DNA of 64,000 nt, from the NCBI GenBank assembly GCA_040772365.1, contig JAXGYI010000003.1, positions 7,234 to 71,233 of the forward strand, given 5' to 3'. The position numbers were made by a program, and so were the translations under genes. The DNA comes from Candidatus Moraniibacteriota bacterium (GTDB taxonomy: Bacteria; Patescibacteriota; Minisyncoccia; Moranbacterales; GCA-2747515). The notes under the pieces are model-generated. The model had not been told where the DNA came from, did no database searches, and saw only the letters and a list, made by a program, of their open reading frames with translations. Of the stretch, positions 49,418-55,124 are shown in pieces; the stretch's first letter is position 1; each line of letters begins with the position of its first letter.

Positions 49418-49963
49418 TTGGAAGGCATGACGCCGGAGTACGTCGCGGATGTTGCGTACAGCGCACTACATAATACCAAAAGTCGTATTTTGCCATCACA
49501 ATATAATCATATACAGCGCATTGCAAAGACGGGGGATCCGTTATCCGCACAATCTTTTATTGGTAATCATGGTGGTTCAGTATCGGCAAAAAGTGTCTAT
49601 CCTACTGCAACAGCAAGAATAACAAAAAGCACCACGGATGGACCCGCAGCTCCATCATCGAATTTCTCTGCACAGGGTGTAGATACTCTTCGGCAGTCTG
49701 CAGGATTTTCTGACCTTCGTGGTGCTTCTGGTACTGTTAAGGATAGCATACAATACCCAAAAAAACAAGCTGTGTCGCAACAAAACCAATCCCTCCGCGC
49801 GCACTTGGCGAAGCGACAGCAACAGGCACAGGAGGCTACTGAGGCGCTGCGAGTAAAGTCCGTACGCACTGCACCACAAGAAATCACTGACTTATTGCGA
49901 ACGGAAAAGAGCACCGGCGTACTGCATGACATTGTCACGAGATTCGTGCCATGCTGCAGTTGA
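49418..49963 (+). CDS. Hypothetical protein (low complexity, Ser/Gln/Ala-rich)
   Basis: ORF only. No motif recognised. Confidence 0.25.
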   Translation: MEGMTPEYVADVAYSALHNTKSRILPSQYNHIQRIAKTGDPLSAQSFIGNHGGSVSAKSVYPTATARITKSTTDGPAAPSSNFSAQGVDTLRQSAGFSDLRGASGTVKDSIQYPKKQAVSQQNQSLRAHLAKRQQQAQEATEALRVKSVRTAPQEITDLLRTEKSTGVLHDIVTRFVPCCS

Positions 49964-50046: not shown

Positions 50047-50073
50047 TTAGCACTCTCTTGACAGGAGTGCTAA
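50047..50073 (+). promoter_or_regulatory. CIRCE operator (HrcA binding site), perfect consensus TTAGCACTC-N9-GAGTGCTAA
   Basis: TTAGCACTCtcttgacagGAGTGCTAA, 43 bp upstream of hrcA. Confidence 0.85.
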
Positions 50074-50085
50074 CACTGTTATACT
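50058..50085 (+). promoter_or_regulatory. Candidate sigma70 promoter overlapping CIRCE (-35 TTGACA, 16-bp spacer, -10 TATACT)
   Basis: The -35 hexamer lies in the CIRCE spacer and left arm, the classical arrangement for HrcA-repressed promoters. Confidence 0.55.
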
Positions 50086-50115: not shown

Positions 50116-50856
50116 ATGCATGAACGACGAAAGAAAATTTTAGTAGCAGTGATCGAAGAATACACCAAAACAGGATTACCGGTTGGGTCATCGGTATTGG
50201 CGGAGAAATATGGTTTTACGGTCTCCAGTGCGACACTGCGCAATGATATGGCGGCGCTGGAAGAATCCGGGTTACTCTACCAACCACACACAAGTGCGGG
50301 ACGTATGCCGACAGATGCAGGATACCGCTACTTTGTAGAAGAGGTGATGCCGGATAGAGAGTTGTCCAAAAAGGAGCAGCAGGCACTGCAAAGGGAGTTG
50401 CTGCAACTCAAGGTGCAGAATACACGACTCACGCGCACAACGGCGCGACTGCTATCAACACTGAGTGGCTATGTGGCGGTAAGTGTTTTGCCAAACAAAG
50501 AGGAGTTTTCTGAGTTTGGATTGCGGTCGCTTTTGGAAAAAGTGGATCGGGATAATTTGGATGACATTTGCGCATTGGCAGAAAGCTTGGACTACATTGA
50601 TGAGCGGTGTGATGAGTTGATGCAACTGGTTGCCGATGGTGAGACAAAAATTTTAATCGGCGAAGATAATCCGTTTGCTAAGACAAAAAACTACTCTATG
50701 ATTGTCAGTCAGTTTGATCAGGGCGGAGAGAAGGGTATTGTGGCGTTGATTGGTCCAAAAAATATGAAATACGAGCGTACGAAGTCCCTCATTGAGTATG
50801 TGAAGAAGATTTTGGGTGGGTCGGGTGCGGCAGTAATTATAATGCAATTACTCTAA
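50116..50856 (+). CDS. hrcA: Heat-inducible transcription repressor HrcA (compact, 246 aa)
   Basis: N-terminal winged helix MHERRKKILVAVIEEYTKTGLPVGSSVLAEKYGFTVSSATLRNDMAALEESGLL and a C-terminal …GPKNMKYERT… motif. Confidence 0.85.
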   Translation: MHERRKKILVAVIEEYTKTGLPVGSSVLAEKYGFTVSSATLRNDMAALEESGLLYQPHTSAGRMPTDAGYRYFVEEVMPDRELSKKEQQALQRELLQLKVQNTRLTRTTARLLSTLSGYVAVSVLPNKEEFSEFGLRSLLEKVDRDNLDDICALAESLDYIDERCDELMQLVADGETKILIGEDNPFAKTKNYSMIVSQFDQGGEKGIVALIGPKNMKYERTKSLIEYVKKILGGSGAAVIIMQLL

Positions 50857-50898: not shown

Positions 50899-51834
50899 AT
50901 GACACAGCAAGAAAAGCAAAAGAATAGTGAAAAAGATATTATTGTACGGCGTGCATTCCGCTTGTCACAGAAAGCACTCTTTTACAATCCGCAGGCGCGC
51001 ACGTATCTCATTTTGCGCGTTGGGCCAACAAAGAGTGGTTCACCTGCACATACGCGGTGGATGGAGAAATATGGTCCGATGGATTTGCCGGGTGGGCACA
51101 TGGATGAAGGCGAAACAGATTTGTATGCGGCGTTTGTACGCGAAGTACAAGAGGAGACAGGTGTTGATGTTTCTAGATACACGGCGGTACCATGTCACAC
51201 AGTTCTCATGATCAACGAAGGTGCACAGTATCCAAGTGGTGTGAATACGATTGCACTAGTGCAGTATGATGGTGAGATTGTCTTGAGTGAGGAGCATATG
51301 GATATGCAATGGCTGACTGCACAGGAAGTGGAAGATCACGGCGAGATCAAGGAGTGGATTAAGGAAAGTGTACGTAAGGCCCAAGAGCTGATTGCACTAC
51401 GAGAGGCAGATGATCGGTGGAGGCGGTGCGTAGCAGATTTTGATAATTATAAAAAACGTCAGGCGCAAACGCAGAAGGACCTCACCGCCTATGCTGCCGA
51501 AGGTGTCATTATGGATCTGTTGCCAGTGGTGGACAATTTTCACGCAGCGACCGATCATATTCCTGCTGACCAGGCAGATAATCCGTGGGTGACAGGCATC
51601 ATGTATATTCGTCAGCAAATGGAAAAGGTTTTTGAAGAGAAGGGCGTGACGCGGATGGAGGTAAAGAGTGGTGATGTGTTTGATCCGTCACGCATGGAGG
51701 CAGTGAAAGAAAATGAGGATGACACGATTGATGGTGATGCAGTGGTAAAGAAAGTGGTTCAGCCAGGCTATATGATGGGAGAGAGGGTTTTACGTGTGGC
51801 GCGTGTAGCAGTAGGACGGAGAGTAGAAAAGTAA
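50899..51834 (+). CDS. grpE: Fusion protein: N-terminal NUDIX hydrolase domain plus C-terminal GrpE nucleotide-exchange-factor domain
   Basis: Nudix box GGHMDEGETDLYAAFVREVQEETGV (G-x5-E-x7-REVxEExG) at aa ~65-90. GrpE signatures …CVADFDNYKKRQAQ… and …GDVFDPSRMEAV…GYMMGERVLRVARVAV at aa ~175-311. Confidence 0.7.
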   Translation: MTQQEKQKNSEKDIIVRRAFRLSQKALFYNPQARTYLILRVGPTKSGSPAHTRWMEKYGPMDLPGGHMDEGETDLYAAFVREVQEETGVDVSRYTAVPCHTVLMINEGAQYPSGVNTIALVQYDGEIVLSEEHMDMQWLTAQEVEDHGEIKEWIKESVRKAQELIALREADDRWRRCVADFDNYKKRQAQTQKDLTAYAAEGVIMDLLPVVDNFHAATDHIPADQADNPWVTGIMYIRQQMEKVFEEKGVTRMEVKSGDVFDPSRMEAVKENEDDTIDGDAVVKKVVQPGYMMGERVLRVARVAVGRRVEK

Positions 51835-51900
51835 GTAACGTATGTTATTAGCAATAAGACAAGGAATATGAACATAACAAAGAAAGGAGGTGAACACATT

Positions 51901-52320
51901 ATGACACGTGATATGATCCGCTTTTCGCCAGCGTCCGATATTGATCGGTTTTTCGGCGAGGCGTTTCTCCCATTCGTTGCGCAGGGCTATACACCGGCGG
52001 TGGATATGTACCAAGACAATGACAACTTGATTGTTGAGATGTCGTTGCCGGGCATTGATGCTGAGGAGGTGGATGTTGCTGTGGAGAATGATGTGTTGAC
52101 GATTAGTGGTGAAATGCAAGAGAAGAAAGAGGTGAAGCGCGAGAACTACTACCGCAAGGAAATGCGCTGCGGCGCGTTCTCACGTTCGGTGATCTTGCCG
52201 TTTGCCGTCAAGGGCGACAAGGCGAGCGCGGACTATGAGAAGGGCGTTTTGCGCATCACATTGCCCAAAGCCGAAGAGGCGAAGCAAAAGAAGATTACGG
52301 TGAATCTCAAGGGCAAATAG
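51901..52320 (+). CDS. Small heat shock protein (Hsp20 / alpha-crystallin family)
   Basis: Alpha-crystallin domain …AVDMYQDNDNLIVEMSLPGIDAEEVDVAVENDVLTISGE…GVLRITLPK. Strong AAGGAGGTG RBS 8 nt upstream of the chosen ATG. Confidence 0.85.
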   Translation: MTRDMIRFSPASDIDRFFGEAFLPFVAQGYTPAVDMYQDNDNLIVEMSLPGIDAEEVDVAVENDVLTISGEMQEKKEVKRENYYRKEMRCGAFSRSVILPFAVKGDKASADYEKGVLRITLPKAEEAKQKKITVNLKGK

Positions 52321-52450: not shown

Positions 52451-54397
52451 ATGGCAAAAATTCTTGGTATCGATTTGGGTACTACAAATTCGGCAATGGC
52501 CGTTATCGAAGGCGGTAAGCCAGAGATTATTGAAAGTGCGGAAGGAAATCGCACGACGCCATCCATGGTGGCGGTGAACAAAAATGGTGAGCGCCTCGTT
52601 GGTCTTTTGGCAAAGCGCCAGGCTGTGACCAACCCTATAAATACGCTGTTTAGCATTAAGCGTTTCATTGGGCGTAATTTTGATGAGGCAGAGGTGCAGG
52701 CCGATATTAAACTGTCTCCATATACTGTCATCAAAGCGGATAATGGCAGTATTAAGGCAAAGATGGGCGATAAGGAGTATACGCCGCAAGAGGTAAGTGC
52801 CATGATTTTGGGCAAAATTAAGACAGATGCGGAGGCAAAACTTGGCGAAAAAATTGATGAAGCGGTGATTACAGTGCCGGCATATTTTGACGATGCACAG
52901 CGTAAGGCAACGAAGGAGGCTGGAGAAGTTGCAGGCCTAAAAGTGCGCCGCGTGATCAATGAGCCAACAGCAGCTGCACTAGCGTACGGATTCAATAAGA
53001 AAAACGATGAGCAGATTGCTGTTTATGATCTTGGTGGCGGAACGTTTGATGTCTCCATTTTGGAAGTGAGTAATGACACGATTGAGGTGAAGGCGACCAA
53101 TGGTAATACACATCTCGGCGGTGATGATTTTGATCAGGTGGTCATCAATTGGGTTTTGGAGGAGTTTAAAAAACAGGAAGGCATTGATCTCTCCAAGGAT
53201 AATCTGGCACTACAGCGTGTGAAAGAGGCTGCAGAAAAAGCAAAGATTGAACTATCATCCTCTGAGCAAACAGAAATTAACCAACCGTTTATCACAACAA
53301 GTGATGATGGTCCGAAACATCTCGTCATGACGCTTTCACGTGCGAAATTGGAGGCACTTGTAGGTGACCTTGTACGCAAAACACTAGAACCAACAGAACA
53401 GGCGCTGAAAGATGCTGGATTTAGCAAGGAAGATATTGATGAAGTGATTTTGGTAGGTGGTATGACGCGTATGCCAATTATCCAAAAGACAGTAGAAGAG
53501 TTCTTTGGCAGAAAACCAAATATGACGGTGAATCCCGATGAAGTTGTTGCGATGGGTGCAGCAATTCAAGGCGGGGTCTTTCAGGGTGATGTCAAAGACG
53601 TGCTTCTGTTGGATGTGACGCCATTAACACTTGGCATTGAAACGATGGGTGGTGTACGTACACCGCTGATCGAGAAAAACACTACTATTCCAGCAAGTAA
53701 GTCACAGATTTTCTCTACGGCGGCAGACAATCAGCCGAGTGTAGAGATTCATGTCTTGCAGGGTGAGCGCGAAATGGCTGCAGATAATAAAACACTTGGG
53801 CGATTTATCTTAGATGGCATTCCACCAGCGCCGCGCGGTGTTCCACAGGTAGAAGTGACATTTGACATTGATGCGAATGGTATCTTAAACGTCAAGGCTG
53901 TGGACAAGGCATCTGGCAAGGAGCAGTCCATTCGCATTGAGGGGTCGTCCGGTCTCACGCAAGAGGAGATTGATCGGATGAAGAAAGACGCAGAAACGCA
54001 TGCAGAGGAAGACAAGAAAAAGAAAGAGCGTGTAGAGCTACGCAATGCAGCCGATACATTGGTCTTTACGACGGAAAAAGCAATGAAAGATGCCGGCGAT
54101 AAAATTACGGAAGAGGAGAAGAAACCAGTACAGGAAAAAGTGGATGCGCTCAAAGAGGTTTTGAAGGATCAGGATGCTGATGGTGAGAAGATTAAGCAGG
54201 CAACAGAAGAACTCTCTGCCGCAGCTCAAAAGATTGGTGAGAAGCTCTATAAAGCTGCGCAGGAAGCTGCTGCAAAGGAGCAGGCTGCAACGGCGGGTGA
54301 CGACGCACCGAAGGGCGATGCGGAAACAGCGTCCGCTGATAGTGGTCCCAAGGATGCTGAAGTGGAAGATGCACCAAAAGAGGATGAAAAGAAATAA
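52451..54397 (+). CDS. dnaK: Molecular chaperone DnaK (Hsp70)
   Basis: [22 protein letters not shown]…, [12 protein letters not shown], and other Hsp70 signatures. 648 aa. Confidence 0.95.
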
Positions 54398-54420
54398 CAT
54401 AGCATAGAAATGTTATGCAG

Positions 54421-54455
54421 CACTCAAGCCCCGTACGGGGCTTGAGTGTTTTGTG
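54421..54455 (+). terminator. Rho-independent terminator after dnaK
   Basis: 13-bp perfect stem cactcaagccccg / cggggcttgagtg, loop ta, then ttttgtgtatt. Confidence 0.75.
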
Positions 54456-54485: not shown

Positions 54486-54513
54486 TTGAGATTTGTGTAG
54501 GACGTGCTATAAT
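54486..54513 (+). promoter_or_regulatory. Candidate sigma70 promoter (TTGAGA, 16-bp spacer, TATAAT) for the downstream lipoprotein gene
   Basis: tttTTGAGAtttgtgtaggacgtgcTATAATgaacg, about 80 nt upstream of the ATG at 54594. Confidence 0.45.
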
Positions 54514-54593
54514 GAACGCGTTGGATTGTAATTTATAATGACCTACGTAGACACTGCGATGCGTGCAGTGTGTTCGTGAGGAAAAAGAAAACA

Positions 54594-55124
54594 ATGAAAA
54601 AGAAACAATGGCTCATGGTCGTGCCGGTCACTCTTGTGGCAGTAATGGTCCTTGGCGGATGTGTAGCAAAAAAGAATACTGCTACTGATCCGGTGAATAC
54701 TCCTGTCGTCAATGATACCGAGACAGCAGAAGAAATGGATACCGTACAGGTGCAGGAGATGCATACCACAAAAGACACAGTGGATTGGGCAGGTACGTAT
54801 AAAGGAGTACTGCCTTGTGCATCATGTGAAGGTATTGATACGGAGATCACGTTGAATGCGGATGGCACTTATAGTGAAAAGACAACCTATATTACCACGA
54901 AACCTGGTGGTGGAGAAGTTGATACTGAGACAGGTACGTTCGTGTGGGATGCCACAGGAACCACGGTGATACTGACAGAACATGATGATGGCGATGTCGA
55001 TAGTGATAATGATGATGGTAAGAGGGCATACCTTGTCACAGAGGGTCAGATGCAGGCACTAGATGCAGCAGGACAAGTCATCACTGGACCGCTTGCAGAA
55101 AATTATATTCTCAAGAAGCAGTAG
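54594..55124 (+). CDS. Lipoprotein with an NlpE-N-terminal-like domain (CxxC)
   Basis: Signal peptide plus lipobox …VAVMVLGGC|VAKKN. YKGVLPCASCEGIDTEITLNADGTY closely resembles the NlpE/CutF N-domain motif (Y-x-G-x-LPCADCxGI). Start at the internal Met; the ORF track begins at 54570. Confidence 0.55.
   Translation: MKKKQWLMVVPVTLVAVMVLGGCVAKKNTATDPVNTPVVNDTETAEEMDTVQVQEMHTTKDTVDWAGTYKGVLPCASCEGIDTEITLNADGTYSEKTTYITTKPGGGEVDTETGTFVWDATGTTVILTEHDDGDVDSDNDDGKRAYLVTEGQMQALDAAGQVITGPLAENYILKKQ

Follow-up and report, generated by a model that had tools for sequence, protein, structure and literature searches.

A Nudix hydrolase domain and the nucleotide exchange factor GrpE are encoded by a single gene, nudix::grpE, in the 64,000-nucleotide (nt) stretch of DNA analysed here (the window), which belongs to contig JAXGYI010000003.1 of the Candidatus Moraniibacteriota bacterium assembly GCA_040772365.1. 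The gene is a genuine, conserved fusion and lies in a heat-shock operon together with hrcA, hsp20 and dnaK. We propose that its product is a bifunctional protein, in which an ordinary GrpE dimer carries active Nudix pyrophosphohydrolases fixed rigidly at the tip of its stalk, beside the substrate-binding domain of DnaK, and which is made together with DnaK under the control of HrcA. We regard this proposal as moderately probable. Each of the two domains is well known; what is apparently new is that they are combined, that the combination is rigid in its geometry and that it has spread across the clade. Full-text searching of the literature turned up no description of a Nudix-GrpE fusion, and a term search of the text of a 2025 GrpE review found no mention of fusions (PMC12987570).

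The nudix::grpE open reading frame (ORF) occupies positions 50899-51834 of the + strand. It begins with the ATG at 50899, ends with the stop codon at 51832-51834 and encodes 311 amino acids (aa). An in-frame stop two codons 5′ of the ATG excludes an earlier start. A preliminary description of the sequence had reported a single 311-aa ORF with a Nudix box and GrpE motifs. This is confirmed by the ORF itself, by the quoted motif strings, all of which (GGHMDEGETDLYAAFVREVQEETGV, ADFDNYKKRQ, GDVFDPSRMEAV and GYMMGERVLRVARVAV) are found in it, and by Pfam. The NUDIX profile (PF00293) matches residues 26-154 with 47.1 bits against a curated cut-off of 21.1, and the GrpE profile (PF01025) matches residues 154-306 with 129.3 bits against a curated cut-off of 25.8, covering profile positions 16-164 of 165. 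Recognition of the Nudix fold in the N-terminal half does not depend on Pfam alone, as the predicted structure also shows an alpha/beta/alpha fold there. The domain boundaries were assigned at residues ~21-151 for Nudix and ~152-306 for GrpE. Among the NCBIfam GrpE equivalog models (e.g. NF010738) the best score, 92.8 bits, lies below the cut-off of 137; this is attributed to the divergent candidate-phyla lineage and not to membership of another family. The parts of the protein are arranged along the gene as follows (A1 is an alignment of 33 fused homologues, A2 a Nudix-only alignment; pLDDT, predicted local distance difference test).

50899..50958, + strand: short N-terminal tail, residues 1-20, rich in Lys, Glu and Gln, pLDDT 58-70, variable in A1
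50959..51351, + strand: Nudix alpha/beta/alpha domain, residues ~21-151
51094..51165, + strand: Nudix box, residues 66-89, GHMDEGE-TDLYAAFV-REVQEETGV, a variant with x8 spacing
51283..51312, + strand: LSxEHxxxxW motif, residues 129-138 (LSEEHMDMQW), from alignments A1 and A2
51352..51555, + strand: continuous 68-residue helix, residues 152-219 (DSSP on the model), containing the R176 / ADFDNYKKR basic patch
51583..51816, + strand: second helix of the GrpE bundle (residues 229-247) and C-terminal beta-wing (residues 250-306)

The beta-wing of known GrpEs is the part that opens the nucleotide-binding domain of DnaK.

The same fusion is found in many related genomes, where the preliminary description had suggested looking for it. 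A search over 5.8 billion proteins, which also supplied the sequences of A1, revealed about 60 clusters of 280-330 aa that carry both PF00293 and PF01025, with identity to the query down to 36% (A1). Where the clusters are named, the names are Moranbacteria/Moraniibacteriota, Parcubacteria, Pacebacteria and Patescibacteria. Where the fused proteins are named in databases, they are called only "nucleotide exchange factor GrpE" or "molecular chaperone GrpE", and their Nudix domain is therefore invisible to annotation-based surveys. A scan of one genome per species gave 156 relatives, the best 80 loci of which (L001-L080) were scored with a hidden Markov model for each half. Nudix and GrpE are joined in one ORF in 46 of these 80 loci, nearly all of them from Candidatus Moranbacteria, and the remaining 34 have a plain GrpE in an open frame of 177-225 codons. 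Among the genomes with the fusion are complete ones, for example CP175956.1 (1.29 Mb). Separate adjacent nudix and grpE genes with a stop between them were found in none of the 80. One locus, L017, was considered as a split nudix / grpE pair and rejected, as the break is a scaffold gap of 10 N inside the gene. Several loci (L001, L002, L007, L008, L016, L022, L058 and others) have record titles reading "uncultured Micavibrio sp.", "Bdellovibrionales" or "Pseudobdellovibrionaceae" despite their Moranbacteria-type operon; these titles are probably taxonomic mislabels of metagenome-assembled genomes (MAGs).

The identical 311-aa protein is called in assembly GCA_040769235.1 and in the Logan assembly of SRR11702768. 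In the former (L081, JAXGLK010000004.1, 4422-6485) dnaK is fragmented, with seven short ORFs in its place, and hsp20 is cut short, whereas the window and the Logan assembly (L082) have both genes whole. The deposited MAG GCA_040769235.1 apparently contains many indel errors. The fusion ORF is intact in this assembly despite the frameshifted dnaK. The ratio of nonsynonymous to synonymous substitutions (dN/dS, Nei-Gojobori) lies between 0.10 and 0.22 in the Nudix half and between 0.07 and 0.11 in the GrpE half; the values are approximate, with dS of 1-2 being near saturation. The preliminary description had allowed for a frameshift-fused pair of genes. The dnaK frameshifts in the NCBI copy of the contig do indicate that sequencing errors occur in that assembly, but no support was found for the joining of two genes by a frameshift, by a lost stop or by chimeric assembly, and the chance of this is negligible: about 60 clusters and 46 species genomes, drawn from many samples, share the architecture, purifying selection acts on both halves, the identical protein is present in other assemblies, and no stop separates the halves in any of the 80 relatives or even in the error-prone assembly.

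The structure of the protein was predicted as an AlphaFold2 monomer from 33 homologues, with a mean pLDDT of 87.8. In the model, residues 1-20 form a poorly ordered leader and residues 21-146 the Nudix alpha/beta/alpha fold. Residues 152-219 form one unbroken helix with a pLDDT of 96-98 at the junction. This helix runs from the last helix of the Nudix domain through the GrpE stalk (the paired thermosensor helix) into the first helix of the four-helix bundle, and is followed by a second helix (residues 229-247) and the beta domain (residues 250-306). In alignments, the GrpE half corresponds to Thermus thermophilus GrpE from residue 24 onwards, and its match to every solved GrpE extends from one end to the other. 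The ADFDNYKKR motif starts 27 residues after the beginning of the long helix; the corresponding AEMENLRRR motif of Escherichia coli GrpE, at residues 67-75, lies at what we take to be the same distance from the start of the E. coli helix. Because of the helix in the model, the offset of ADFDNYKKR and the end-to-end GrpE alignments, the stalk is predicted to be kept at its full length, with only the disordered N-terminal tail being replaced. The preliminary description had placed the Nudix domain in the position of both the disordered tail and the thermosensor helix. The first part of this claim holds; the second does not, the paired helix being retained at full length in the model and the alignments.

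The residues of the stalk are strongly conserved in A1, in which R176, A179, F181, N183, Y184, K185 and K186 never vary and at least 90% of the sequences have R187. In Mycobacterium tuberculosis GrpE, a basic patch of the stalk, Arg64-Arg86, contacts part IA of the DnaK nucleotide-binding domain (NBD-IA) and the substrate-binding domain (PMC10803776). By alignment, R176, K185, K186 and R187 would correspond to the GrpE basic patch that contacts these two domains of DnaK.

The canonical disordered tail with its pseudo-substrate motif is absent from the fused protein, which has a non-conserved leader of 20 residues instead. A GrpE-like architecture of disordered N-terminus, stalk, short helical domain and beta wing is regarded as conserved across kingdoms (PMC12987570). 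The tails of E. coli GrpE occupy the substrate groove of DnaK through the IIM motif (PMC12915176), and deletion of a 42-residue GrpE tail blocks substrate release (PMC10803776). The leader string DIIV (residues 13-16) was considered as a kept IIM-like motif and rejected, as it is unconserved even in the closest homologues. The unfused GrpEs of Moranbacteria have acidic, Lys/Glu-rich tails of 45-88 residues. An E-I-[IV]-V-[ED] sequence, which recalls 17-IIM-19 of E. coli, is found at a fixed position in 7 of 27 such tails. With only these seven occurrences, an acidic-flanked tri-hydrophobic motif is too weak a contrast between unfused and fused proteins and was discarded.

The Nudix box of the window protein reads G66-x5-E72-x8-R81-E82-x2-E85-E86-x-G88-V89. 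It had been described as complete; its catalytic core is indeed intact, but eight residues separate the first Glu from Arg-Glu where the canonical number is seven. An x9 spacing is seen in homologue P0011. Residues G65, G66, R81, E82, E85 and E86 are invariant in A1 and E72 is present in at least 90% of its sequences. The REx2EE core is retained in all 46 fused loci. Outside the box, L129 and W138 are invariant in both A1 and A2, H133 is invariant in A2 and at least 90% conserved in A1, and S130 and E132 are at least 90% conserved. The resulting LSxEHxxxxW motif is common to human NUDT2 (LSHEHQAYRW) and to the Methanosarcina mazei protein 3GRN (LSYEHIEYSW). Its residue E132 may serve as an extra metal ligand. 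Since the catalytic residues and LSxEHxxxxW are conserved and dN/dS is low, the Nudix domain is probably an active pyrophosphohydrolase.

The closest characterised enzymes, by sequence and structure, are apparently the diadenosine polyphosphate (ApnA) hydrolases of human (NUDT2), Caenorhabditis elegans, Plasmodium falciparum and T. thermophilus, by small margins over NudI, MutT-like proteins, YmfB and RppH. The ranking of structural matches is nearly flat across the small Nudix enzymes, and none of the NCBIfam equivalog models comes near its cut-off for the Nudix half. A dinucleoside polyphosphate such as diadenosine tetraphosphate (Ap4A) is the best lead to the substrate, although a tentative one. 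The lead is attractive because Ap4A rises on heat shock and cross-links to DnaK, GroEL and ClpB, and because apaH mutants are heat-sensitive (PMC10148737, PMC7705103).

The Nudix family to which the domain belongs was surveyed by searching 1.84 billion representatives (50% identity) with a Nudix-only profile, which yielded 35,852 matches. The best 150 of these were classified into 29 Nudix(-Nudix)-GrpE, 71 tandem Nudix-Nudix, 3 triple-Nudix and 47 single-domain proteins; several of the single-domain matches are truncated fusions. A family so prone to tandem duplication would suit a domain that works as a pair, as a GrpE dimer would supply. Variants with two Nudix domains in front of GrpE, of 445-455 aa, are represented by P0052, P0053, P0056 and P0057 and by the loci L028 (1-1335) and L029 (5965-7329). 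The Nudix domain of the fused gene in L031 (4705-5601) is without LSxEH and only 22-34% identical to other fused Nudix domains, and that of L035 (5857-6783) is similar. This suggests, at the level of sequence comparison, that the L031 fusion is independent or very divergent. Standalone Nudix ORFs located ~5 kb downstream of grpE in the unfused loci L045, L047, L050 and L065 were considered as donors and rejected, being generic, without LSxEH and not close relatives.

A different N-terminal module of ~150 aa is attached to grpE in L055 (5461-6402) and L076 (3156-4148). It contains the GS...DxD motif of Pol-beta-type nucleotidyltransferases (LFGSVGL...DVDFLV) and gives sub-threshold matches to NTP_transf_2 and DUF2204. 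Elsewhere its homologues stand alone, as proteins of 160-170 aa, one of which is named "predicted nucleotidyltransferase". A link of the standalone form with the grpE operon was rejected, as these homologues occur in unrelated gene contexts. Nucleotide-handling modules (Nudix, tandem Nudix and nucleotidyltransferase-like) thus appear to have been captured repeatedly at GrpE's N-terminal end.

We propose the following mode of action for the bifunctional protein. The C-terminal GrpE half would dimerise and open the nucleotide-binding domain of DnaK in the way known from E. coli and M. tuberculosis. As the stalk is a direct continuation of the last Nudix helix, a dimer would keep two Nudix domains next to each other at the distal tip of the stalk. 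This tip is expected to adjoin the segment that touches the substrate-binding domain of DnaK in known complexes and to lie ~60-70 Å from the nucleotide cleft, as estimated from the helix length. There the Nudix domains may hydrolyse a nucleoside-polyphosphate compound, in which case alarmone clearance would be provided by the heat-shock regulon in a fixed ratio to the DnaK-GrpE machine and physically beside it. The fusion would at the same time remove the pseudo-substrate tail that helps client ejection in E. coli and M. tuberculosis. Whether the two activities are mechanistically coupled, by alarmone removal at the chaperone, by ligand control of the stalk or by altered client release in the absence of the tail, is in our view about evenly balanced.

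Several observations weigh against this proposal. The x8 spacing of the box is that of the subclade of the window, the more distant fused homologues of A1 having the canonical x7. The P1-phosphate- and adenine-binding residues of the human Ap4A hydrolase are a His, Lys42, Tyr82, Lys89 and Phe128 (PMC4734340). In a phmmer alignment, which is uncertain in the loops, the position of Lys42 of NUDT2 is taken by the invariant Gly65, that of Tyr82 by Asn106 and that of the preceding His by Pro60. A further marker of Ap4A hydrolases is a conserved Tyr ~16-18 residues past the Nudix box. No conserved Tyr is present 16-18 residues past V89; residues 105-107 are I-N-E, and Tyr111 is unconserved in A1. 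An assignment as a NUDT2-type Ap4A hydrolase was rejected, since these key substrate-binding residues are unconserved. Channelling of nucleotide to DnaK is unlikely in the modelled geometry, because the Nudix domain is far from the nucleotide cleft of DnaK. The distribution of the fusion is patchy, and fused and unfused genes are interleaved in a crude neighbour-joining tree of the GrpE domain (135 residues). The GrpE halves are 75-82% identical in the fused/unfused pairs L031/L045, L038/L077 and L027/L045; the highest value, 82%, is that of the L031 gene and the unfused gene at 5803-6420 of L045. Between fused subgroups, the Nudix halves share an identity of no more than 22-58%. The module seems to have been gained or lost several times and, because close GrpE relatives lack it, appears to be accessory and dispensable. 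The Nudix domain may matter through co-expression alone.

This last explanation is the strongest rival of the proposal, although we consider it doubtful. A housecleaning Nudix enzyme acting on oxidised or non-canonical nucleoside triphosphates (NTPs), on nucleoside diphosphate derivatives (NDP-X) or, like RppH, on RNA 5′ ends would have been fused to grpE for the sake of the heat-shock promoter, with no effect on DnaK or GrpE. The lack of the domain in closely related GrpEs (75-82% identical) agrees with this, as do the generic small MutT-like fold of the Nudix half, which has no diagnostic substrate motif, its distance from the DnaK nucleotide site in the model and the fact that its relatives commonly occur singly or in tandem without GrpE. 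Against it, the junction is a confidently predicted rigid, continuous helix and not a flexible linker. In every fusion, moreover, it is the functionally important tail that is replaced, and at one and the same point, separate adjacent genes are lacking among the 80 loci, and several different nucleotide-handling modules occupy the same terminus of GrpE.

A more specific form of the bifunctional proposal, which we judge unlikely, is that the Nudix domain on GrpE is a hydrolase or sensor of Ap4A or other dinucleoside polyphosphates (NpnN) placed by the substrate-binding domain of DnaK, through which GrpE would destroy or answer a DnaK-bound alarmone under heat or oxidative stress.

It is still less likely that the Nudix domain is chiefly a sensor or regulator that, by ligand occupancy or by dimerisation, changes how stable the paired stalk helices are, acting through the shared helix, and so tunes nucleotide exchange or the thermosensor, with hydrolysis resetting the switch. 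The unbroken helix leading from the Nudix core to the stalk speaks for this, and the E. coli stalk is a reversible thermosensor, the unfolding of which alters the contacts of the tail and of the substrate-binding domain (PMC12987570, PMC12915176). The Nudix ligand sensors NrtR and AraR are also among the structural matches. Regulatory Nudix domains such as NrtR are usually without catalytic residues, whereas REx2EE is invariant here, and close relatives do without the module.

A very improbable explanation is that the domain scavenges nucleotides by hydrolysing the ADP released from DnaK, dADP or, stepwise like YmfB, an NTP, and so lowers the local ADP level and favours rebinding of ATP in energy-poor cells. 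One of the best structural matches is YmfB, which converts NTP to NDP and then to NMP, and the release of ADP is the task of GrpE. However, the Nudix site lies at the opposite end of the stalk from the interface of beta-wing and nucleotide-binding domain (PMC10803776), again ~60-70 Å away by helix length; free ADP would diffuse, which makes a local effect unlikely, and there is no specific sequence support.

The genetic setting of nudix::grpE is that of a heat-shock operon. As the preliminary description had stated, the ORF is part of an hrcA-grpE-hsp20-dnaK operon: the neighbours were identified by Pfam and all lie on the + strand. The following features surround the fused gene.

50047..50073, + strand: CIRCE operator (controlling inverted repeat of chaperone expression, the HrcA binding site), TTAGCACTC-N9-GAGTGCTAA, 0 mismatches, 43 nt upstream of the hrcA start
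50058..50085, + strand: sigma-70-like promoter, TTGACA, 16 nt, TG-TATACT, 11/12 consensus positions with extended -10 TG; a consensus match only
50116..50856, + strand: hrcA-like repressor gene, short form, 246 aa; Pfam HrcA C-terminal domain with 59 bits and sub-threshold winged-helix matches
51868..52320, + strand: hsp20, Pfam HSP20 with 73.5 bits; between grpE and dnaK in only some of the related loci
52451..54397, + strand: dnaK (Hsp70), the client of GrpE, Pfam HSP70 with 851 bits; 3′ of grpE in nearly all related loci
54419..54450, + strand: intrinsic-terminator-like hairpin at the operon end, 14-bp stem with 8 GC pairs and a T-rich tail; a pattern match

Exact matches to CIRCE are expected by chance 0.01 times in the window. 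The gene hrcA is located 5′ of grpE in nearly all of the 80 related loci, and the order hrcA-grpE-[hsp20]-dnaK on one strand is kept wherever the contigs reach, irrespective of whether grpE is fused. Neither a second GrpE nor a second Nudix of this family was found in the window. Because the operon slot and strand are shared with the unfused loci, a second GrpE is absent from the window and CIRCE control is present, the fused gene is, judged from sequence and gene order, the orthologue of housekeeping grpE in a classic HrcA/CIRCE heat-shock operon.

Some further features of the region were observed. The -35 hexamer TTGACA lies inside the 9-nt spacer of the 27-nt inverted repeat of CIRCE, which gives a very compact operator-promoter layout (50047-50085). 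A typical HrcA has ~340 aa. The HrcA of the window has ~246 aa, and the open frames of hrcA measure ~740-840 nt in all related loci (L001-L080); the Pfam match covers only the last 70 positions of the C-terminal model, apart from the weak N-terminal winged-helix matches. The HrcA of the window would be a shortened candidate-phyla form. Upstream of the operon, at 49418-49963, lies a 181-aa ORF with no Pfam match. Downstream, at 54570-55124, an NlpE-family (PF04170) lipoprotein-like ORF is found, with a promoter-like site of its own at 54486-54513.

The exchange of a tail for an apparently active enzyme amounts to a natural experiment on the function of the GrpE tail. It also illustrates the way in which stress functions are packed into single polypeptides by the ultra-small genomes of candidate phyla. 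If the substrate is a dinucleoside polyphosphate, the protein would be a tractable candidate for approaching a 35-year-old question, the binding of Ap4A to DnaK and its role as a heat-shock alarmone. If the Ap4A reading is true, the fusion would be a direct, hard-wired link between this enigmatic signal and the Hsp70 cycle, and selection for such a link would lie behind the repeated capture of modules at the N-terminus of GrpE.

With the canonical GrpEs of E. coli (1DKG), Geobacillus kaustophilus (4ANI), T. thermophilus (3A6M) and M. tuberculosis (8GB3), the fused protein shares the stalk, the four-helix bundle, the beta-wing and the basic patch, as well as the slot in an hrcA-grpE-dnaK operon under CIRCE control. 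The difference lies at the N-terminus. Canonical GrpE has an acidic disordered tail, which acts as a pseudo-substrate and aids client release (PMC12915176, PMC10803776), whereas the fused protein has a folded 130-residue domain connected by an uninterrupted helix. From the asymmetrical ApnA hydrolases, i.e. NUDT2, the C. elegans and P. falciparum enzymes and the T. thermophilus diadenosine hexaphosphate (Ap6A) hydrolase Ndx1, the Nudix half is distinguished by its substrate-binding residues, by its x8 box and by the fusion to GrpE. The structural genomics protein 3GRN, which is MutT-related, is a standalone archaeal protein of 153 aa. We know of no reported substrate of 3GRN, and it therefore adds no functional information. 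Nudix domains fused to other proteins are known from NadM-Nudix (2QJT, 2QJO), which combines a nicotinamide mononucleotide (NMN) adenylyltransferase with an ADP-ribose pyrophosphatase. The partner in that case is a metabolic enzyme of the same pathway, while here it is a chaperone co-factor without a catalytic site of its own. The eukaryotic BAG exchange factors likewise join an Hsp70 exchange factor to an extra module, possibly linking the chaperone cycle to another signal (PMC12987570). Their fold is unrelated to that of GrpE, and the modules that they carry are protein-interaction domains, whereas the module carried by the fused GrpE is a probable enzyme domain.

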